Shown in pieces: positions 1 to 26,976 of a DNA stretch of 32,000 nt. The number at the start of each line of letters is the position of its first letter. The stretch's first letter is position 1. Source of the stretch: Candidatus Methylomirabilis oxygeniifera (GTDB lineage: Bacteria > Methylomirabilota > Methylomirabilia > Methylomirabilales > Methylomirabilaceae); NCBI GenBank assembly GCA_000091165.1, contig FP565575.1, positions 90,001 to 122,000 of the forward strand. The letters are read 5' to 3'. The position numbers and the translations under genes were made by a program. The notes beneath the pieces are model-generated. The model was not told the DNA's origin and ran no database searches. It saw only the letters and a list, made by a program, of their open reading frames with translations.

Positions 1-372
1 ACCCAGCACGTAAAAGCAGGGGATACCATTCCCTCGACCCCGAACCATCGGGTGAATGCGGGCATTCGTTACCATCTGTATAAGTGGCTGGCGCTTTCCC
101 TCGACTTGCACTATGTCGGTTCGCAGTACCTGCGCGGCGACGAAGCGAATACTCAGTCGAAATTGAACTCGTACGTCGTCATAAACGCTGGAATCGACTT
201 GCACTGGAAGCACCTCAAAGGCTTTGTGAAGATCAACAATTTGGGGAACAACAAGTATGAGACTTTTGGGACCTTTGCGCCTAACGCCAAGGTTGCCGGA
301 GACCCAATCGAACGCTTCCTGAACCCCGCCCAACCGATCAATGTGTTAGTCGGCGCCAGTTACCGATTCTAG
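1..372 (+). CDS. TonB-dependent outer-membrane receptor, C-terminal fragment (5' end lies outside the window)
   Basis: Frame 1 is open from nt 1. Translation ...AGDTIPSTPNHRVNAGIRYH...YLRGDEANTQSKLNSY...NNKYETFGTF...VGASYRF* ends in the terminal aromatic Phe typical of TonB-dependent beta-barrels. It is paralogous to the C-terminus of the full-length receptor at 23329-25674 (shared YLRGD..N.QSK and xxYET motifs). Confidence 0.8.
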   Translation, partial: TQHVKAGDTIPSTPNHRVNAGIRYHLYKWLALSLDLHYVGSQYLRGDEANTQSKLNSYVVINAGIDLHWKHLKGFVKINNLGNNKYETFGTFAPNAKVAGDPIERFLNPAQPINVLVGASYRF

Positions 373-6288: not shown

Positions 6289-6480
6289 GTCTGCGTGATA
6301 ATCCACACGACTCTCGTCGTGTATGCGAAAGTTCGCCCATTCACTCCTCGTAAGGTCACACGCACGGTTCCATCAGCATCGTGCCGATCGTTCGTTTTCT
6401 CAGCTGAGACAAGGGTTTACGAGCGCTTCTGCGACTACGACGATAGCCGTCAAAGGCGTGGCATCCCGCTTGCTAATCAT
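6289..6480 (+). promoter_or_regulatory. mxaF control region: conserved block with candidate enhancer site and sigma-54 promoter TGGCAT-cccgc-TTGCT (6459-6474)
   Basis: It aligns colinearly with 17501-17694. The blocks GTCTGCGTGATAATCCACA, CACACGCACGGTT and the -24/-12 element TGGCATCCCGCTTGCT are identical. TGCGAAAGTTCGCCCATTCACTCC (6324-6347, near-palindrome GCGAAAGTTCGC) differs from its partner at one position (G vs T). The promoter is ~170 nt upstream of ATG 6644. Confidence 0.65.
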
Positions 6481-17500: not shown

Positions 17501-17694
17501 GTCTGCGTGATAATCCACAGGCCTACGGTCGAGGTGTGCGAAATTTCGCCCATTCACTCCATCGCCCAGCCACACGCACGGTTGTGCGCTCAACGTGTCG
17601 ATCGTCAGTTTCCCCAGCCGCGACAAGACTTTGCCTGCGCTCCTGCAACTGCATTGATGGCCATCGAGGGTGTGGCATCCCGCTTGCTGATACC
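17501..17694 (+). promoter_or_regulatory. xoxF proximal control region: palindrome GCGAAATTTCGC (17538-17549) plus sigma-54 promoter TGGCAT-cccgc-TTGCT (17673-17688)
   Basis: It is colinear with the mxaF upstream block 6289-6480 (see that feature). The -24/-12 element is identical to the mxaF one. The palindrome lies ~135 bp upstream of GG(-24). Confidence 0.65.
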
Positions 17695-17813
17695 CAGTCG
17701 CTTGTGACAGTCCGGATACTCGTCTCGCCTACTTTGGGGAAGGGAGTGGAAGGACAGATCGGGGCGATAGTTTTCAGTAAGCGGTTCAACACACAGAGGA
17801 GGGAGTGCAGATC

Positions 17814-19718
17814 ATGGGGAAGCCGTTATCCGGTTCTACGATGGCAGGCATGATCGCCGGCGCGCTCATGCTGGCTATCGCTTCTGGCAGTGCGCTCGCC
17901 AATGAAGAGATCGTTCGGGCGAGCAAAAATCCTGATCTGTGGCCCGCGCCGGGCCGGGATCTGGCCATGACGCGTCATAGCCCGCTCAAAGACATCAATA
18001 CCGCCAACGTCGGGAAGCTGCAGATGATGTGGTCGCAATCCACCGGTGCGTTGCGTGGCCATCAGGGTCAGCCGATCGTGGTCGAGGTGGCTGGAACGCC
18101 GATGATGTTTTTTGTGAGTCCCTGGCCGAATATCGTGCAGGCGTTGGACCTGTCCGATCCTGATCATCCGAAGCAGGTGTGGAACTACAAGAAGAAAACC
18201 GACCGTGATGAGTTGGCGGTGACTCGCGCGTGTTGCGATACGATTAACCGGGGCCTGAACTATGCCGACGGCAAGGTGGTCTTTCATACCCTCGACGGAT
18301 ATGTCATCGCGCTGGACGCCAAGACCGGCAAAGAGATTTGGACGGTCAAGCATGCCTGGTCGGATAAGGGTGAAACGATTACCGGCCCGACGCTGATCGC
18401 CGAGAATAAGGTCATCATCGGGTTCGGCGGCGACGAGTTCGCCGCGCGCGGCCGGGTGACCGCGTATGACCTGAAGACCGGCAAGCAGGTGTGGAACTGC
18501 CACAGCACCGGGTCCGACAAGGATGTGTGCCTGACCCCGGAGACCAACAAGGCCAATCCGCATTACGGGACGTACGGCAAGAACCTCGGCATGATCACCT
18601 ATCCCAATGACGAGTGGAAGATCGGCGGTGGCGCGCCCTGGGAATGGTTTACCTATGACCCGGAGTTGAGGCTCGTGTACGTGCCGACGGGCAACCCCGG
18701 GCACTGGAGTCCATCCTATCGGTGCGGTGAAACCGGCGCAAACCTGACTCACGAAAAGTGTAACCAATACGACCCCGAGTTGCGCAGCGGCAGATGGGAC
18801 AACAAGTGGGCGATGACGATCTTCGCCAGAAAGATCGATACCGGCGAGGCGGTATGGGCGTACCAGATGACCACCTTCGACCAGTGGGACTACGACGGCG
18901 TCAACGAACCCGTCCTGGTGGACATGAAGGTCGACGGCAAAATGCGCAAGACGCTGGTCCACTTCGACCGTAACGGGTTTGCCTATGTGCTTGACCGTGC
19001 CGATGGGACTCTGTTGCGCGCGCATAAGTTTTTCCCCCTCAACTGGGCCGAGAAGGTCGACCTCAAGACCGGCCGTCCGGTGAAGATCAAGGAGCATTCG
19101 CCCTTCGCTCGTCATGTCAGCACGCAGGTCTGCCCGTCTTCGCTTGGCGCCAAGAACCAACAACCGATTGCGATCGATCCCAAAGAACCGCACATCGCCT
19201 ATGTGGCGACCAACTGGTGGTGCATGGAATACGAGCCGCAAGAGCGCACCCACACCCAGCAGGGCATGCTCTATGTCTTTGCGAACGTCTTCACGTATCC
19301 GATCGAGAAGGGTGTCGCGAGCAAGGTGCAGAAGTTCAACGTGCTGACCGGCGAGACCGAGTGGGCTATTCCGGATGCCTATCCGGACTGGGGCGGCATG
19401 CTGACGACCGATGGCGACCTACTGTTCTACGGCAGCCTGAGCGGAGATTTTCGCGCGGTCGATCGGAAGTCCGGCAAGGTCCTGTGGAGCCGTAAACTGG
19501 GCTCCGGCATCATCGGCAACCCGATCACGTACAAGATCAAGGGCAAGCAGTACGTGTCGGTATTGGCCGGTATCGGCGGCTGGATCGGTCTGCCGGTGAC
19601 GGCCGAGCTCGACTTTGACGACAAGTATGGAGCCATCGGCGCCACCGCTATGGCCAAGCTGACCGGGCTCGATAAGATTCCGCAGGGTGGCGTGCTCTAC
19701 ACCTTCCGTATCGATTGA
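17814..19718 (+). CDS. xoxF: PQQ-dependent methanol dehydrogenase, lanthanide-type (XoxF), copy 1
   Basis: GGAGGG SD lies 10 nt before ATG 17814. The GTG at 17805 is too close to the SD. Signal peptide ...ASGSALA-NEE, vicinal Cys TRACCDTINRG. Active-site FDQWDYDGVNE (D-Y-D at 18888-18896) carries the additional Asp diagnostic of Ln-dependent XoxF. No small-subunit gene follows. Confidence 0.93.
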   Translation: MGKPLSGSTMAGMIAGALMLAIASGSALANEEIVRASKNPDLWPAPGRDLAMTRHSPLKDINTANVGKLQMMWSQSTGALRGHQGQPIVVEVAGTPMMFFVSPWPNIVQALDLSDPDHPKQVWNYKKKTDRDELAVTRACCDTINRGLNYADGKVVFHTLDGYVIALDAKTGKEIWTVKHAWSDKGETITGPTLIAENKVIIGFGGDEFAARGRVTAYDLKTGKQVWNCHSTGSDKDVCLTPETNKANPHYGTYGKNLGMITYPNDEWKIGGGAPWEWFTYDPELRLVYVPTGNPGHWSPSYRCGETGANLTHEKCNQYDPELRSGRWDNKWAMTIFARKIDTGEAVWAYQMTTFDQWDYDGVNEPVLVDMKVDGKMRKTLVHFDRNGFAYVLDRADGTLLRAHKFFPLNWAEKVDLKTGRPVKIKEHSPFARHVSTQVCPSSLGAKNQQPIAIDPKEPHIAYVATNWWCMEYEPQERTHTQQGMLYVFANVFTYPIEKGVASKVQKFNVLTGETEWAIPDAYPDWGGMLTTDGDLLFYGSLSGDFRAVDRKSGKVLWSRKLGSGIIGNPITYKIKGKQYVSVLAGIGGWIGLPVTAELDFDDKYGAIGATAMAKLTGLDKIPQGGVLYTFRID

Positions 19719-19813
19719 TCGTGTCACGATCCCGAATGCGCTGTCGATCTGATGGTTGCCGGCGGGTGGCATCAGTCCACCCGCCGGTGCCGTCGTATGT
19801 GAGGTCGATTCGT

Positions 19814-21532
19814 ATGTCGTTGTTGAAGCAGTGCGGAACCGTACTCCTCGCCTGCGCGCTCAGCGTCACGGTCGCGCCTGCGTTTGTAATCGCCGACATC
19901 GGGCATGATGGGGGCGCGCCCAGCGTCAACGTTGCGCCTGCCTCTGCAACCGAGGGCAGCGCGTTGCTGCGGGTGTGCGCCGATCCCGGAAATATGCCGC
20001 TGTCGAATAATAAGGGAGAAGGCTTCCAGAACAAGATCGCAGAGATCCTCGCGCAGGCGATGGGCGCGCAGCTTACGTATTACTACCGACCGTATCTGGA
20101 GCGAGGCCTCACCAGCCAAACCGTGGATGCCGATCGGTGTGACATGCTGATGGATATACCGTCGGGCGAGGAACGTCTGCTGACCACCAAGCCGGTCTAT
20201 CGCAGTACCTTTGTGCTGGTCTACCGCAACGACAAAGGATACGCCTTCAAGGGTCTGGACGACCCCAGATTACTCAACGACCTCAAGGTCGGCGTCTTCC
20301 AGCATTCCGCGGCGCGGCAGGTATTGCAGGAGCGCGGCCTCGCACGCGGCAACACCATTGTGCATGCCGTCAGCTACGATACCGATGTCAACCCCGAACG
20401 GCAGCCGTCACGGCAGATCCGACAGGTGATCGACGGCCGACTGGATGTAGCTGCCATCTGGGGGCCGATGGCCGGCTGGTACAAGGCCGTCGAAGGCGCG
20501 CCGCTGACGATCCTGCCAATGAACCTCATGGATGATGCCACGCCATTGGAGTTTGAGTTGAGCGTGGGCATGCGGAGGGGCGCCGAGGAGTTGAAGACCA
20601 GGATCGAACAGGCACTGGTGCGCGAGCAGGCGCGTATCCGCCGGACATTGGAGGAGTACGGGGTGCCGCTGGTCGAATGCGCGCGGTGTCTGGTGTCGGG
20701 CACGCTGCCTTCGCATGGGCCTTACACGCCGCCCGCGCCCGTTACGGCAACGTCCCCACCGGCGGCGGCGCCCGACATGACGCAGGTGGCCTTGCAGACC
20801 GACGCCGCGCTGGCCGGCGGCGGGACGCTCGATGAGGAGTTGCACTACGCAATCCTGGCCAGTCAGCCCAAGCGGGCCGACTACCTGATCGCGCGTGGTG
20901 CCGATGTTAACGGCCGGGATGCGCAGAACCAGACGCCGCTGATGACGGCGGTCATGCACGGTCACGAACCGGTAGTCGCTCTCTTGCTGAACCGCAAGGC
21001 CGATCCGAACAGGGCGGACAACGACGGCTGGACCGCCCTGATGCGCGCCGTCCAGCGCGACGACCCTACCATGGTGCGCCTGCTGGCCGCACATGGCGCC
21101 GACCCCGAAGCGATCAATCGGAACGGCATGAGCGCGCTCACCATGGCGGCGCTGCACGGCAAGAGCCTAGCGGCAGCCGCCCTGCTGGAAAGCGGGGCAA
21201 AGGTTGACAGTGCGATCGGGACGGCGCGCTACACGCCGCTGATGATTTCGGTGTTCTCCGGCACGCAGCCTGTCGCACAGGCACTGTTGCGATATGGCGC
21301 GCAGGTCAACGCCCGTAACGGCGGCGGTCTGACGGCGTTGATGATCGCCGCGGCCTCTAATCGGCCAGAGATGGTTGCGCTGTTGCTCGGCGCAGGCGCG
21401 GATGCCGCACTCAAGGACGCAGAGGGGAGGACCGCGCTGGCGCTGGCGCGAGAGCGCGATGCCGCCACTGTCGTCAGCCTGCTCACGGGAAGGTCGGCCG
21501 TAGGCAGTGCGGCGAAGCCTGCTGCGCAGTAG
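19814..21532 (+). CDS. xoxJ: XoxJ/MxaJ-like periplasmic binding-fold domain fused to a C-terminal ankyrin-repeat domain
   Basis: ATG 19814 has GAGG 9 nt upstream. Signal peptide MSLLKQCGTVLLACALSVTVAPA. LLRVCADPGNMPLSNNKGEGFQNKIA...VYRSTFVLVYRND aligns with MxaJ (8449-9342). A Pro/Ala linker (~20700-20777) follows. Then come ~6 ankyrin repeats (~20831-21486), e.g. QTPLMTAVMHGHEPVVALLLNRKADPN and GLTALMIAAASNRPEMVALLLGAGADAA. Confidence 0.85.
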   Translation: MSLLKQCGTVLLACALSVTVAPAFVIADIGHDGGAPSVNVAPASATEGSALLRVCADPGNMPLSNNKGEGFQNKIAEILAQAMGAQLTYYYRPYLERGLTSQTVDADRCDMLMDIPSGEERLLTTKPVYRSTFVLVYRNDKGYAFKGLDDPRLLNDLKVGVFQHSAARQVLQERGLARGNTIVHAVSYDTDVNPERQPSRQIRQVIDGRLDVAAIWGPMAGWYKAVEGAPLTILPMNLMDDATPLEFELSVGMRRGAEELKTRIEQALVREQARIRRTLEEYGVPLVECARCLVSGTLPSHGPYTPPAPVTATSPPAAAPDMTQVALQTDAALAGGGTLDEELHYAILASQPKRADYLIARGADVNGRDAQNQTPLMTAVMHGHEPVVALLLNRKADPNRADNDGWTALMRAVQRDDPTMVRLLAAHGADPEAINRNGMSALTMAALHGKSLAAAALLESGAKVDSAIGTARYTPLMISVFSGTQPVAQALLRYGAQVNARNGGGLTALMIAAASNRPEMVALLLGAGADAALKDAEGRTALALARERDAATVVSLLTGRSAVGSAAKPAAQ

Positions 21533-21600: not shown

Positions 21601-21690
21601 AAACCCCCTTAATCCCCCTTTACGAAAGGGGGAGGCATTGAGGCGTATCAGGAATATCCCCCCCTTTACGAAAGGGGGGTCAGGGGGGTT
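21601..21690. repeat. Two tandem copies of a GC-hairpin unit (CCCCCTTTACGAAAGGGGG)
   Basis: Hairpin 1 is at 21614-21632 and hairpin 2 at 21659-21679 (CCCCCCTTTACGAAAGGGGGG). They lie in the 200-bp gap between xoxJ-ank and xoxG. No clean U-tract follows. Confidence 0.55.
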
Positions 21691-21732: not shown

Positions 21733-22332
21733 GTGACGTTTCGCAATGTTGGCAGCATCGCCGTAATGAGCATCGCCTTCCTCTCCGCCTGCGGGACCGC
21801 CGGCACAACGGCGCAACCGGTCGCCGCGCCGGATCGGACGCAGCAGCCTGCTCCGCCCACGCCGGCCGAACCTGCGGCGGTCGGATCGACATCGGCGGTA
21901 CAGACGATCACCGCCCCTGCCGTGCCCGCCGGTCTCGACGGTCGGCCCATCGACCGCACCAATGCCAGCACGCCAGGCTCACTCAAGAATCCGTATGCCA
22001 ATGCGACTGAAGAGATCATCGCGCAGGGCCGTGAACGGTACCTGGCCTATGGCTGCAACGGCTGCCACGGCGGCGGAGGCGGGGGCGGTATGGGGCCACC
22101 GTTGTCCAACGAGGTCTGGGTCTACGGCAGCGATGACGACACGCTGTTCCGGTTGACGGCGATCGGGAGCGTCGAGTTGCAAAAGCTTGGGTACGCGCGT
22201 AAGAGCCGCGAGGGAGTCGTCGCTCCGATGTTGCCCTATGGTCAACTGATCAAAACTGAGGATGAACTGTGGAAGATGATCGCCTTTATCCGCACCACCT
22301 ATCGTGGCGATCCGTCGCGCAAGAACTGGTGA
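21733..22332 (+). CDS. xoxG: XoxG-type c-type cytochrome (methanol-metabolism related), predicted lipoprotein with a long Pro/Ala tether
   Basis: GTG start with AGGAAGGAG 7 nt upstream. Lipobox FLSAC. A ~75-aa low-complexity linker (PAPPTPAEPAA...). The heme motif CNGCHGGGGGGGMGPPL, with a glycine run after CxxCH, is what I recall as characteristic of XoxG-family cytochromes. Confidence 0.85.
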   Translation: MTFRNVGSIAVMSIAFLSACGTAGTTAQPVAAPDRTQQPAPPTPAEPAAVGSTSAVQTITAPAVPAGLDGRPIDRTNASTPGSLKNPYANATEEIIAQGRERYLAYGCNGCHGGGGGGGMGPPLSNEVWVYGSDDDTLFRLTAIGSVELQKLGYARKSREGVVAPMLPYGQLIKTEDELWKMIAFIRTTYRGDPSRKNW

Positions 22333-22337
22333 TCCTC

Positions 22338-23297
22338 ATGAAGAAGACGGCGCTGTGTGTTGTCGTGTTCGCTTATCTGGTTACGCGAGGAGCTTCGGCA
22401 TCGGCCGAGTCTCGGGCGTATGTGACCAACGAAGCGTCCAACGATCTGTCCGTCATCGATACTGCCTCCCGACGGGTGGTCGCCACCATCAAGGTTGGGG
22501 ATCGACCTCGAGGCGTAGCCGTGTCCCCGGATGGCAGCCGCGTCTATATCGCGAACGCGAACTCCAACAACCTGACGGTCATCGATACGGCTACCCTCAC
22601 GGTGAAGGCGACGGTTCCGGCTGGGATCGAACCGGAGGGCGATCCGGAAGGGATCGCCGTGACCCCGGATGGAAAGCAACTCTACGTCGTCAACGAAAAT
22701 CCCGGCACCGTCTCCGTGATCGATACGGCCACCCATCAGCTCGTTGCGACAGTAACGGTAGGGGTGGAGCCGGAAACGGTTGCCGTGAGTCCCGATGGGC
22801 GATGGGTCTACGTCACCAATGAAACCTCCCACGATGTCCACGTCATCGACACTTCCGCCGATCGTGTCATCGCCAAGATCAAGGTGGGCGCCAACCCCCG
22901 TGGGGTGAGTTTTACGCCCGATGGGAAGCGGGCCTATGTGGGATGCGAGCGCGACGGGACGGTCTCCGTGATCGACACGGCTGCCCGCCGGGTGATCGCC
23001 ACCATCCCGGTAGGGGAGCGTCCGGTGGGGACGGTCGTGAGCCACGACGGGAAAAAGGTCTATGTGGCCCACGGTCGGTCGTATGAGGTGTGGGTCCTGG
23101 ATACGAGGACCCATCAGGTGCTGACCAAGATCCCGACGCAGGAGCGGTCATGGTGGGTCGCGTTGACCCCGGATGGAAGGGAGCTGTACGTCACGGTCCA
23201 CGGTGGCGGCCGCGTGGCGGTCATCGACACCACTCACGACCGGCTGCTTACAACCATACCGGCAGGGACGAAGCCCTGGGGCGTGGCGGTCAGGTAA
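22338..23297 (+). CDS. Secreted seven-bladed YVTN beta-propeller protein, paralogue 2
   Basis: ATG lies 5 nt after the xoxG stop. Signal peptide MKKTALCVVVFAYLVTRGASASA. Repeats include YVTNEASNDLSVIDTASRRVVATIKVGDRPRGVAVSPDGSRVYIAN and similar. Confidence 0.8.
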   Translation: MKKTALCVVVFAYLVTRGASASAESRAYVTNEASNDLSVIDTASRRVVATIKVGDRPRGVAVSPDGSRVYIANANSNNLTVIDTATLTVKATVPAGIEPEGDPEGIAVTPDGKQLYVVNENPGTVSVIDTATHQLVATVTVGVEPETVAVSPDGRWVYVTNETSHDVHVIDTSADRVIAKIKVGANPRGVSFTPDGKRAYVGCERDGTVSVIDTAARRVIATIPVGERPVGTVVSHDGKKVYVAHGRSYEVWVLDTRTHQVLTKIPTQERSWWVALTPDGRELYVTVHGGGRVAVIDTTHDRLLTTIPAGTKPWGVAVR

Positions 23298-23328: not shown

Positions 23329-25674
23329 ATGAGAGTGAGGGTGCTCTGGTACGTGGCGATAGGGTTGATCTGGCTCGTGGCTGGGATGATGCCGCGCGCG
23401 TGGGCGGAAACGGATCAGTCGGAACCGGGGGAAAGTCCCCTCAAGGCCTTTGAGCTCCCGGCGGTGGAGGTGATCGAGCATACCCCTCTGTCGGCTCTCG
23501 GTATTCCCATCGGGAAATACCCGGGGAACGTGCAGGAGATCACGTCTGAGGAGATCGAGAGTCAGAACCCGCTTGATATCTCGGAAATGTTCTACCGGAA
23601 CCTCAGCTCGGTCAATATCAATGCTGCTCAGAACAACCCTTGGCAGAATGATGTGACCTACCGTGGTTTTCTCGCCTCGCCCCTGACCGGCAGCCCCATC
23701 GGGCTGTCCGTGTATCTGGACGGCATGCGCTTCAACGACGGATTCGGGGAAACGATGAACTGGGACCTGACTCCCCAGTCCGCCATCGCGGAAATCGACG
23801 TGATTCCCGGTTCCAACCCTGTCTTCGGTTTGAATACTCTCGGTGGCGCGCTTAACATCCGCACCAAGCGCGGCTTCGATTTGCAGGGTACGGAAGTCGA
23901 AGCGTCTGGAGGATCCTTCGGACGCTGGGCTGTGGAGGCGGAGCACGGCGCTGTGCACGGTCCGTTTGACTTGTATCTGACATTCAACACCCTGGACGAA
24001 AGCGGCTGGCGCGAGCACTCGCCGAGTGAGTTGCGACAATTATTCAGTAGAATCGGGTGGAAAACGGAGCGCACTGACCTCAACCTCAACTACATCTGGG
24101 CCGACAACGATCTCATCGGCAACGGCTTCGTCCCGGAGAGTACACTGGCGAGAGACCGTGATGCCGTCCATACCTTCCCTGATCGGACCGGGAATCGTAT
24201 GCACCTGCTCAACCTGCGCGGGAGTCGTCGGATCACGGATGCCCTGCTGCTCTCTGGGAACGGGTTCTATCGCTACTACAAGCGTAAGACCCTGAATGGG
24301 GATGCCGAGGTCGGCTGTGTGGATGACGCCACCGGGGCGGGGGTCGTCGACGCCGGCGGCCGTCCGCTGCACCTTGGGCTGTGCGAGGGTTCGGCCGTCG
24401 GATTCTTTGATGAGGATGGCAATCCGCTGGCCGGAGCACTGGAGCGCGAAGCCGAGGGTGAGGACCGGACGACGAGAACCCGCACCCATGACTTTGGCGG
24501 AACGTTCCAACTCTCGCATAGCGGCGCCATCATGGGCCGTACCAACCGGCTGACGGTTGGATTTGCCTTCGATCGCCACCAAAGCCATTATAACCAGCGC
24601 GAGGCCGAATCCGAGCTGGTGCCGGACGGCAACAGTGTGGGCACGGAACGCGAGGGACCCTTCGAGACGGAGGTCAACGTCGGCACCCGGCAGGATAATG
24701 CCGGTTTCTATATTACCAACACCTTCGATCTCGCCGAGCGTCTGGCGCTGACGTTGTCCGGGCGGTATCAGCATGTGGACATCAACATACGCGACCGGTC
24801 TGGCGAGAACGACGATCTTAACGGCCACCATACATTCGAGCGCTTCAGTCCTGCCGTAGGATTGACGTTTCAAGCGCTGAAGAACGCCACGCTCTTCTTC
24901 TCCTATAGCGAGGGCTTTCGCGCCCCCACTCCGGCGGAACTGACGTGCGCCGATGAGAACGATCCGTGCAATCTGCCGAATGCGTTTGTCGCCGATCCGC
25001 CGCTCAACAAGGTCGTCGCCCGCACGTACGAGTTCGGCGCGCGCGGCCGTCTGCCGATCGGAAATGGGGTGCGGTGGAACGCCGGCTTCTTCCGCACCGA
25101 CTTAAGCAACGACATCCTGTTTACCGTCGTTGAAACCGGCGGGGCCGGCTTTTTCCAGAATGTTGACGCGACGCGCCGCCAGGGCGTCGAGGTCGGTGTA
25201 CAGGGTCGGTGGAAGCGATTGAAATACTTTGGAAACTACGCGTACGTTGATGCCACCTACCAGTCCGACGTGACGCTTGCGAGCGTGACGGACCCCGGCG
25301 GCGTGCGGGTCAAGGATGGCGATGTGATTCCCGGCATCCCAAAGCACAATGCCAAGGTTGGGGCAGAGTATGCCCTGCTGGACAATCTCTGGATCGGCGG
25401 CAACGTGATCGCCGTGTCCGGCAACTATCTCCGCGGCGACGACGGCAACAACCAAAGCAAGACGGATGCCTACGCGATACTGAATCTTCACGCCCGCTAC
25501 GTGCCGATCAAGAACCTGGAGATCTGGACGCGCATCGACAACGTGACCGATACCGACTACGAGACGGCAGGCACGCTCAATTTTAATGCCTTCGGCAGCC
25601 CCATCGCCGTTGAGCGATTCGTCGCCCCGGGATCGCCCGTTGCCGGCTGGGTCGGTGTCAAGTTACGCTTCTGA
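23329..25674 (+). CDS. TonB-dependent outer-membrane receptor (full length), last gene of the xoxF operon
   Basis: GGAGGG SD, ATG 31 nt after the YVTN stop. Signal peptide ...MMPRAWA-ET, TonB-box-like ELPAVEVIE, plug domain (VQEITSEEIESQNPLDISEMF...TYRGF). A long beta-barrel ends in VGVKLRF*. Confidence 0.9.
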   Translation: MRVRVLWYVAIGLIWLVAGMMPRAWAETDQSEPGESPLKAFELPAVEVIEHTPLSALGIPIGKYPGNVQEITSEEIESQNPLDISEMFYRNLSSVNINAAQNNPWQNDVTYRGFLASPLTGSPIGLSVYLDGMRFNDGFGETMNWDLTPQSAIAEIDVIPGSNPVFGLNTLGGALNIRTKRGFDLQGTEVEASGGSFGRWAVEAEHGAVHGPFDLYLTFNTLDESGWREHSPSELRQLFSRIGWKTERTDLNLNYIWADNDLIGNGFVPESTLARDRDAVHTFPDRTGNRMHLLNLRGSRRITDALLLSGNGFYRYYKRKTLNGDAEVGCVDDATGAGVVDAGGRPLHLGLCEGSAVGFFDEDGNPLAGALEREAEGEDRTTRTRTHDFGGTFQLSHSGAIMGRTNRLTVGFAFDRHQSHYNQREAESELVPDGNSVGTEREGPFETEVNVGTRQDNAGFYITNTFDLAERLALTLSGRYQHVDINIRDRSGENDDLNGHHTFERFSPAVGLTFQALKNATLFFSYSEGFRAPTPAELTCADENDPCNLPNAFVADPPLNKVVARTYEFGARGRLPIGNGVRWNAGFFRTDLSNDILFTVVETGGAGFFQNVDATRRQGVEVGVQGRWKRLKYFGNYAYVDATYQSDVTLASVTDPGGVRVKDGDVIPGIPKHNAKVGAEYALLDNLWIGGNVIAVSGNYLRGDDGNNQSKTDAYAILNLHARYVPIKNLEIWTRIDNVTDTDYETAGTLNFNAFGSPIAVERFVAPGSPVAGWVGVKLRF

Positions 25675-25688
25675 CGCCTGACATTCCA

Positions 25689-25844
25689 TCGATCGCGGAT
25701 GGGGTCCTGCCGCGTGCTGCGGAACTCGTGGATAGTTCGAATCGCCGTTCTCCTCCGGTCCAAGGCTTCCCTGCGTAGAACGGCGATGTTGTATGGTGCG
25801 CTCAGACAGGTCCTCGCACACTCCAGGACCCCATCCGCGATCGA
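25689..25844. repeat. 156-bp element with 21-bp perfect terminal inverted repeats and a nested 11-bp inverted repeat (MITE-like or large RNA hairpin)
   Basis: TCGATCGCGGATGGGGTCCTG (25689-25709) is the exact reverse complement of CAGGACCCCATCCGCGATCGA (25824-25844). The inner pair is ATCGCCGTTCT (25741-25751) and AGAACGGCGAT (25777-25787). It starts 15 nt after the receptor stop. Confidence 0.55.
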
Positions 25845-25871: not shown

Positions 25872-25931
25872 CAATTCGTCAATCCCACCCAGCCGATCAA
25901 TGTTCCGGTCGGTGCCGGTTACCGATTCTAA
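25872..25931 (+). pseudogene. 20-codon 3' remnant of a TonB-dependent receptor gene
   Basis: QFVNPTQPINVPVGAGYRF* compares with the end of the receptor at 1-372 (RFLNPAQPINVLVGASYRF*). The DNA of 25878-25931 matches 319-372 at roughly 43 of 54 positions by hand count. An in-frame stop lies immediately upstream at 25869-25871. Confidence 0.55.
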
Positions 25932-25998: not shown

Positions 25999-26976
25999 AT
26001 GACTCCAAAGGATGCCTTTACGCTTGGACGTCAAGGAGGCCATGCCGAGGTCGACCGGGTCCACGATGAGGTCCATTCTGTCATGACATTGCGGGTTGGA
26101 TCGCAGGCCGGACCGCGTTCGCTGGGCCGATTTCTTCTAAGCTCTACCGGTTTTCACCTGATCTTCGCTTGGATTATCATCAGCGTTGGACTGCCCAAGG
26201 TCCCATCGGCTCCGAAGCCTCTTGTTGTCACCATTATTGGAAGTGACAGCGCTGAGGCGCCTGCCGCGTCGGGACGACCTGATCGCACCCACACTCGACA
26301 GCCGGCCGCGCCGGGGCCGGCGACGCAAGCCGTCAATTCGAAAGTGACAGCCCAACCTCGCGTCTCACCACCGTCGCCTGATCTCACGGCTCAGGCGACG
26401 GAATCAACGGCGTCGGATGATCGGGTTGCCGAGCCTAAGGCTGTCGGCGTGTCTGCCGGTGGATCACATGCGGCGAGCATGGGCGCAGCAACGGCTTTAG
26501 CGATGGGTGGCGCGTCGAAGGGACCTGTTCTGCTCGGGTCTGACGGAGATGGCGAAGTCGGCTCAGGCCCGGCCGGTCGAGGCGGAGCGGGCCGCCTTGA
26601 TACGGCGTTGATTGCACCGTCGACACCATCGGTCACGGTCGGCTCCGCTCAGGGCGCGGGAGGGGGCGGAACGGGCTGGTCAAGCAATGGAGGCGCCGGA
26701 GGGCGGTCATCTGCGCCGAACTACGGAATCAATCCGCTTCCCAAGTACCCTCTCTTGGCCCGGGAAAAAGGGTACGAAGGAACGGTCTACCTGCGGGTTC
26801 TGGTCCGCGCGGATGGTCGTGTAGAGCGGCTGGCTGTCGATCGATCCTCCGGATATGAGATCCTGGACCGAGCGGCGGTAGACTCGGTCAAAGAGTGGGC
26901 GTTCTTTCCTGCCAAAAAGGGTGGGAAGTCGGTACAAAGCTGGGTGTTGCTACCGGTAAAGTTTGCGCTTAACTGA
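25999..26976 (+). CDS. tonB: TonB-family energy transducer
   Basis: N-terminal TM FHLIFAWIIISVGL, then a long Pro/Ala/Gly-rich spacer. C-terminal TonB_C-like domain: PKYPLLAREKGYEGTVYLRVLVRADGRVERLAVDRSSGYEILDRAAVDSVKEWAFFPAKKGG. Start is uncertain (ATG 25999 or ATG 26083). No exbBD in the window. Confidence 0.8.
   Translation: MTPKDAFTLGRQGGHAEVDRVHDEVHSVMTLRVGSQAGPRSLGRFLLSSTGFHLIFAWIIISVGLPKVPSAPKPLVVTIIGSDSAEAPAASGRPDRTHTRQPAAPGPATQAVNSKVTAQPRVSPPSPDLTAQATESTASDDRVAEPKAVGVSAGGSHAASMGAATALAMGGASKGPVLLGSDGDGEVGSGPAGRGGAGRLDTALIAPSTPSVTVGSAQGAGGGGTGWSSNGGAGGRSSAPNYGINPLPKYPLLAREKGYEGTVYLRVLVRADGRVERLAVDRSSGYEILDRAAVDSVKEWAFFPAKKGGKSVQSWVLLPVKFALN

Follow-up and report, generated by a model that had tools for sequence, protein, structure and literature searches.

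A LutH-family TonB-dependent receptor at the end of the xoxF1 block of Candidatus Methylomirabilis oxyfera as a credible lanthanide-uptake candidate

Introduction

Most methane oxidisers of the NC10 phylum have only a lanthanide-dependent methanol dehydrogenase, and we know of no route by which these organisms acquire lanthanides. In the genome of Candidatus Methylomirabilis oxyfera, a gene for a TonB-dependent receptor stands at the end of the xoxF1 block, and the question raised by this arrangement is whether the receptor could serve for lanthanide uptake, as does LutH, which is needed for La uptake in M. extorquens (PMC7391723). The NC10 phylum goes unmentioned in a published survey of lanthanide-handling genes (PMC12482762).

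The whole stretch of DNA analysed, hereafter the window, is 32,000 nt long (contig FP565575.1, positions 90,001 to 122,000), and its gene order is that of the published Ca. M. oxyfera methanol dehydrogenase cluster, with mxaFJGI and accessory genes, xoxF1 and xoxF2 (PMC6094997). M. oxyfera is also among the species whose methanol dehydrogenase clusters are covered by a review figure, the legend of which names a “TonB-like uptake system” (PMC11845868). No mention of the locus tags DAMO_0125 to DAMO_0129, which cover the receptor and its neighbours, was found in the literature searched. The initial annotation of the window described the receptor as the terminal gene of the xoxF operon and as a candidate lanthanide importer, and proposed a phylogeny against LutH and a search for lanmodulin or lutA-like genes as checks.

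Results

The receptor gene, designated TBDR3, is a complete open reading frame of 781 aa at window 23329–25674 (forward strand), with an ATG start located 6–7 nt downstream of GGAGGG. Its product carries a signal peptide (MRVRV...PRAWA/ETDQ), a Plug domain (E 3.9e-11), a TonB_dep_Rec barrel (E 6.8e-54), and the C-terminus ...LRF with a terminal aromatic Phe, which together are the hallmarks of a TonB-dependent outer-membrane transporter, and the assignment of this gene as a TonB-dependent receptor was correct. Only plug and barrel were returned by the domain search, with no FecA-type signalling (STN) domain at the N-terminus. The protein has an 88% match in Ca. Methylomirabilis lanthanidiphila. 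In the AlphaFold model, the barrel is visible (pTM 0.68), and the plug is weak (mean pLDDT 62; residues 19–146 below 50), so the model was used only for fold ranking and not for inference about a binding site.

The family to which TBDR3 belongs was approached through the lut cluster of a Methylobacterium genome, which was reached via the XoxF1 scan. On one contig, this cluster carries lutA (TIGR03863, 484 bits), lutB (TIGR03866, 526 bits), two receptor genes, and a lanmodulin gene encoding four DPDxDGT loops (EF-hands); LutH was therefore identified through gene context rather than with a reference sequence of that name. The two receptors are the top matches to TBDR3 in their genome, with 34–37% identity, and both, in turn, match TBDR3 best in M. 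oxyfera (457 and 389 bits), with TBDR2, a paralogue described below, at no more than 256 bits. A maximum-likelihood tree of 71 rows joins TBDR3 and its orthologues with the lut-cluster receptors and the homologues from Hyphomicrobium and Methylophilus in a clade of 51 rows (SH-aLRT support 100%), the sister of which is the TBDR2 clade; the LutH-like clade contains none of E. coli PqqU, FhuA, FecA, FepA, and BtuB, nor any other M. oxyfera receptor. So, the phylogeny against LutH gave a positive answer, by reciprocal best hits as well as by the clade shared with the lut-cluster receptors. At the same time, no orthology of TBDR3 to a receptor of unrelated substrate, be it B12, heme, copper, a siderophore, or PQQ, came to light, and TBDR3 scores far under the cut-offs of the siderophore, PqqU, heme, and B12 profile models. 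By sequence, TBDR3 belongs to the LutH receptor family. M. aquaticum TonB_Ln and AM1 LutH, both experimentally verified lanthanide receptors, are 35.7% identical (PMC9260416), and the identity between TBDR3 and the lut receptors is comparable to that of this pair.

The surroundings of TBDR3 are rich in genes of methanol oxidation. From 5' to 3', the window carries the 3' end of TBDR2, a histidine kinase gene and a sigma-54 response regulator gene, the mxa genes, xoxF1, xoxJ fused to ankyrin repeats, xoxG, a YVTN propeller gene, TBDR3, tonB, the genes of a repeat protein and an FG-GAP protein, and xoxF2; the genes and sites located below lie on the forward strand, except for one inverted repeat, which is given without strand. 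The xoxF1 gene (17805–19718) encodes a PQQ methanol dehydrogenase (TIGR03075, 564 bits) that is 69–76% identical to the XoxF1 of Methylophilaceae and Hyphomicrobium. A motif check found the lanthanide-type WDYDG, with its characteristic Asp, in both XoxF1 and XoxF2, and WDYAG in MxaF. The xoxF1 gene is followed by the xoxJ-ankyrin gene (19715–21532; TIGR03871 and ankyrin domains), by a gene for an xoxG-type cytochrome c (21733–22332; cytochrome c domains, weak MoxG match), and by the gene for a seven-blade YVTN propeller of the LutB/PedA2-like type (22338–23297), which scores 268 bits on TIGR03866 against a cut-off of 287. This propeller is 39% identical to LutB of the Methylobacterium lut cluster and 48–53% identical to the propellers adjoining TBDR3 orthologues. 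Consequently, as defined by a LutB-like gene adjoining the receptor gene with xoxF1 in the same block, the neighbourhood of TBDR3 is of the LutH type. A second LutB-like YVTN propeller is encoded elsewhere in the genome (150450–151427); it is 50% identical to the window copy and, with 42% identity, slightly closer to Methylobacterium LutB. On the other side of TBDR3, the gene at 25999–26976 encodes a TonB_C protein (E 5.7e-23) and is the tonB that had been annotated there, and a long inverted repeat with an outer stem of approximately 20 bp in the fold lies just 3' of the receptor stop (25689–25844).

The sole recognisable promoter for the block is a sigma-54 promoter-like site, TGGCATCCCGCTTGC, located at 17673–17687 ahead of xoxF1, and the identical 15-mer stands before mxaF at 6459; sigma-54 sites were looked for before xoxG, the YVTN gene, the receptor gene, and tonB, and none was found there. 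The distances between xoxG and the YVTN gene (stop at 22332, start at 22338; 5 nt) and between the YVTN gene and the receptor gene (stop at 23297, start at 23329; 31 nt) agree with the initial annotation, as does the lack of a terminator-like site in either gap. The description of TBDR3 as the terminal gene of the xoxF operon is sound as regards its position at the end of the xoxF1 block and these short gaps, but it is weakened by the secondary origin of the junction, considered below, and by a 200-nt gap with a strong REP-like GC-clamp hairpin pair (21601–21690; fold −79 kcal/mol, z = −3.8) that parts xoxF1-xoxJ from xoxG-YVTN-receptor. Given this hairpin gap and the only promoter being located before xoxF1, co-transcription of TBDR3 with the xoxF1 block is plausible and not firmer than that. 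The palindrome CCCCTTT...AAAGGGG is present in 79 copies genome-wide, often paired approximately 45 bp apart, and so behaves as a REP-type element.

Relatives of TBDR3 in other genomes were examined for similar neighbours, with gene calls on GC-rich loci filtered by codon-position GC. In two genomes of the class of Methylomirabilis, G018 and G126, the order is a weakly LutA-like binding protein (TIGR03863, 149–153 bits, under the 413.6-bit cut-off), a LutB-like propeller, and the TBDR3 orthologue; the propeller of G018 reaches 319 bits on TIGR03866, that of G126 is 49% identical to the propeller of the window, and a PQQ dehydrogenase is encoded close to the orthologue in G018. In two further genomes of this class, G067 and G024, the genes around the orthologue are unrelated ones. 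Among 56 metagenome loci, a YVTN gene was found nearby in 8 and a PQQ dehydrogenase gene in 4, in several subclades, and all five checked PQQ dehydrogenases adjoining family members (L042, L071, L123, L132, and L138) have the lanthanide-type D-Y/F-D motif. In a scan of named genomes, proteobacterial XoxF1 clusters kept the YVTN gene and usually had no LutH-like receptor. The XoxF1-XoxJ-XoxG-YVTN block is conserved in Hyphomicrobium and Methylophilaceae (L046–L092); a LutH-like receptor adjoins it at Hyphomicrobium locus L071, and at several loci of Methylophilaceae, xoxF1 is closely preceded by genes for a response regulator and a receptor of the FecA- or FhuA-like kind. Metagenome contig Ga0233425_10024357 (L096), from another Methylomirabilis, carries xoxF1-xoxJ-xoxG-TBDR3, with the propeller missing. 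This contig is a mosaic, in which the XoxF1 fragment is 99% identical to that of the window and XoxJ, XoxG, and TBDR3 only 81–88%, and this difference suggests recent exchange of xoxF1 among Methylomirabilis strains.

The present arrangement around TBDR3 has a history that can be followed through its paralogue. The first 372 nt of the window, which code for part of a barrel domain, are the 3' end of TBDR2, a gene of 745 aa (genome 88135–90372) whose product is 36–38% identical to TBDR3; the paralogue reported ahead of the regulator genes is thereby substantiated. Before tonB, at 25875–25930, lies a 56-bp 3'-end stump of a TBDR2-type gene, with 80% DNA identity to window 316–371 and, at the protein level, with 14 of the last 19 residues matching the TBDR2 type, which we read as the scar of an ancestral TBDR2-tonB junction. 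Two congeners share the gene order ATP-grasp, decarboxylase, TBDR1, kinase, regulator, TBDR3, TBDR2, TonB, repeat protein, FG-GAP, and XoxF2, and the TonB-MORN-FG-GAP-XoxF2 block is conserved among congeners. The TBDR3-TBDR2-TonB order of the congeners, together with the stump before tonB, indicates that both the receptor-tonB and the propeller-receptor junctions of M. oxyfera are secondary and arose through recent rearrangement, probably on the arrival of the mxa and xoxF1 blocks. Upstream of mxaF, from L007:10764 to window 3606, lies a duplicated module, TBDR1-HK1-RR1 followed by TBDR2-HK2-RR2, and this one supercluster holds three of the approximately eight receptor genes of the genome.

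Of 17 other Methylomirabilis genomes sampled first, 3 yielded an orthologue of TBDR3. A later sample covered 19 other genomes of this genus, 17 of which gave TBDR2 and 16 XoxF2, often on the same contig, with the TBDR2 orthologue usually located 5–7 kb from xoxF2. Since TBDR3 is rare among congeners while XoxF2 is common, the genus as a whole cannot depend on TBDR3 as its lanthanide route. The sparse distribution of TBDR3, set against the near-universal presence of TBDR2, makes it probably an accessory receptor and makes TBDR2 the better genus-wide candidate for a lanthanide receptor, a division of labour that we infer. The two receptors are alike in that the TBDR2 clade is sister to the LutH-like family and in that they share a supercluster, but TBDR2, unlike TBDR3 (4 of the 20 genomes sampled), occurs in nearly all Methylomirabilis genomes and adjoins tonB and xoxF2.

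Discussion

As a member of the LutH receptor family, TBDR3 is a credible, although unproven, lanthanide-uptake gene. The function that we infer for it, with moderate confidence, is that of a LutH-family, TonB-energised outer-membrane transporter, most likely of light lanthanides, which would be carried as ions or chelator-bound into the periplasm. The substrate would be bound by the barrel and plug from the extracellular side, the TonB encoded by the neighbouring gene would pull the TonB box near ELPAVEVIE so that the plug opens, and the metal would enter the periplasm, where the LutB-like propeller, XoxJ, and apo-XoxF would act. The search for lanmodulin and lutA-like genes gave a negative result: no homologue of lutA, lutF, or lanmodulin (the latter sought by motif) was found in the M. 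oxyfera genome, and Lut-type onward transport of lanthanides to the cytoplasm is thus probably absent. With neither an inner-membrane importer of the LutA/LutF type nor lanmodulin, delivery would probably go no further than the periplasm, and the adjoining periplasm-facing histidine kinases and the sigma-54 regulators would be responsible for sensing.

The candidacy of TBDR3 as a lanthanide importer, therefore, was strengthened by the LutH-family phylogeny and restricted by the recent rearrangement, by the lack of the gene in most congeners, and by the missing lutA, lutF, and lanM homologues. The LutH family is, moreover, large, and a single substrate may not be a given for it. The M. oxyfera XoxF1, in a report cited in PMC9291206, was purified apparently with Ca, which counts against the lanthanide reading.

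An alternative is that TBDR3 serves for the uptake of a different scarce solute, for example a ferric siderophore, another metal chelate, or calcium, and that its adjacency to xoxF1 results merely from rearrangement. TBDR3 is labelled an iron or siderophore receptor in databases, and among general models it fits TIGR01783 (siderophore receptors) best, but it reaches 143.4 bits there against a cut-off of 223.5, and a PDB sequence search, which gave one weak match only, returned no close solved relative. The secondary junctions with the xoxF1 block and tonB, the unrelated neighbours in G067 and G024, and the absence of TBDR3 from most congeners would all suit such a solute. However, TBDR3 shares one clade with the lut-cluster receptors, members of the family are recurrently linked to LutB-like genes and lanthanide-type PQQ dehydrogenases in several lineages, with LutA-like genes at three loci, and TBDR3 of the congeners also lies within a supercluster of receptors, regulators, TonB, and xoxF2. 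We consider import of another solute unlikely, though it deserves to be kept in mind.

Import of PQQ, or of a PQQ-metal complex, for a cofactor-auxotrophic host would be another function, and it has some attraction in this genus: a search for pqqC found none in M. oxyfera or six other 99%-complete Methylomirabilis genomes but did give matches in the positive controls, and the absence of PQQ synthesis genes has been published (PMC6094997). PqqU (YncD), the E. coli PQQ importer, is a distant sequence relative of TBDR3, and its structure is the closest solved one to the predicted TBDR3 model (E 3.9e-31, with the next family at approximately 1e-25); it is also the second-best NCBIfam match of TBDR3, with an hhalign probability of 99.6%. 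In E. coli K-12 (L178, 1520963–1524368), pqqU and yncE, the latter encoding a seven-blade YVTN-type propeller, are divergent neighbours, a pairing that mirrors the propeller-receptor pair of the lut clusters and the window. Metal co-transport has been proposed for some PqqU homologues, and the signature residues of PqqU are Y99 (Y, F, or W), R304, and R365 (PMC12124388). The position of the PQQ-stacking Y99, however, is Thr120 in TBDR3 by both MAFFT and hhalign, and this position is non-aromatic in every LutH-clade member that the alignment sampled. Opposite R304 and R365, TBDR3 has Tyr, in a region where the alignment is unreliable; since the barrel positions R304, R365, and K274 of PqqU are aligned differently by MAFFT and hhalign, Y99 alone was taken as firm evidence. 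TBDR3 also stays far under the PqqU family cut-off (NF041535; 127 bits against 1200), and its distribution, unlike that expected for the role of PqqU, does not track PQQ auxotrophy: four PQQ-auxotrophic congeners with XoxF2 are without TBDR3, and a relative bearing pqqC has kept its TBDR3 orthologue along with LutA/LutB-like genes. In E. coli, moreover, YncE is dispensable for PQQ uptake (10.1101/2022.06.07.495086), which also speaks against a PQQ importer here. All this makes PQQ import very improbable for TBDR3.

The reading of TBDR3 as a LutH-family lanthanide transporter agrees in several respects with the characterised setting of LutH in the lut cluster of M. extorquens AM1/PA1 and with the LutH-like receptors of methanotrophs: the clade is shared, reciprocal best hits are formed with lanmodulin-adjacent receptors, the receptor is paired with a LutB-like YVTN propeller and linked to lanthanide-type PQQ dehydrogenases, and there is no N-terminal signalling domain. 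It departs from that setting in the modest identity given above, in the absence of lutA, lutF, and lanM from the genome, and in the location of TBDR3 at the end of the xoxF1 block, within a supercluster of three receptors and two sigma-54 two-component systems. In Methylocella silvestris BL2, homologues of LutB, LutA, and LutH adjoin xoxF1, and La represses these genes 3- to 5-fold (PMC9291206). As far as the published description allows the comparison, this cluster and the window are alike in having a dehydrogenase of the XoxF1 clade, xoxJ, and xoxG, then a YVTN propeller and a TonB-dependent receptor; unlike M. oxyfera, M. silvestris has a LutA-like binding protein.

For NC10 bacteria, TBDR3, as a member of the LutH family, and TBDR2, as the copy conserved in the genus, are two concrete candidate genes for lanthanide uptake. 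The known Lut system would thereby be extended to another phylum, in a form that can exist without LutA, LutF-type ABC importer parts, and lanmodulin, which bears on the general need for cytoplasmic lanthanide import. No new mechanism is revealed, and the gene itself is a fairly ordinary one.

ATP-grasp plus decarboxylase pairs make chelators in some siderophore pathways. Genes for an ATP-grasp protein and a PLP-dependent decarboxylase lie directly 5' of TBDR1 (L007:7964–10422; genome 79964–82422), and, as a lead only and by analogy, this pair could synthesise a small carboxylate or amine chelator. One might even imagine, as a speculation with little to recommend it at present, that the LutH family and PqqU are evolutionary cousins, that TBDR1, TBDR2, and TBDR3 share the import that supplies XoxF, and that TBDR3 takes up a lanthanide chelated by a quinone or carboxylate, possibly PQQ, with the chelator perhaps provided by this pair. 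The decarboxylase resembles LysA and weakly matches FslC, an enzyme of rhizoferrin synthesis, and the pair of genes is kept in three congeners.
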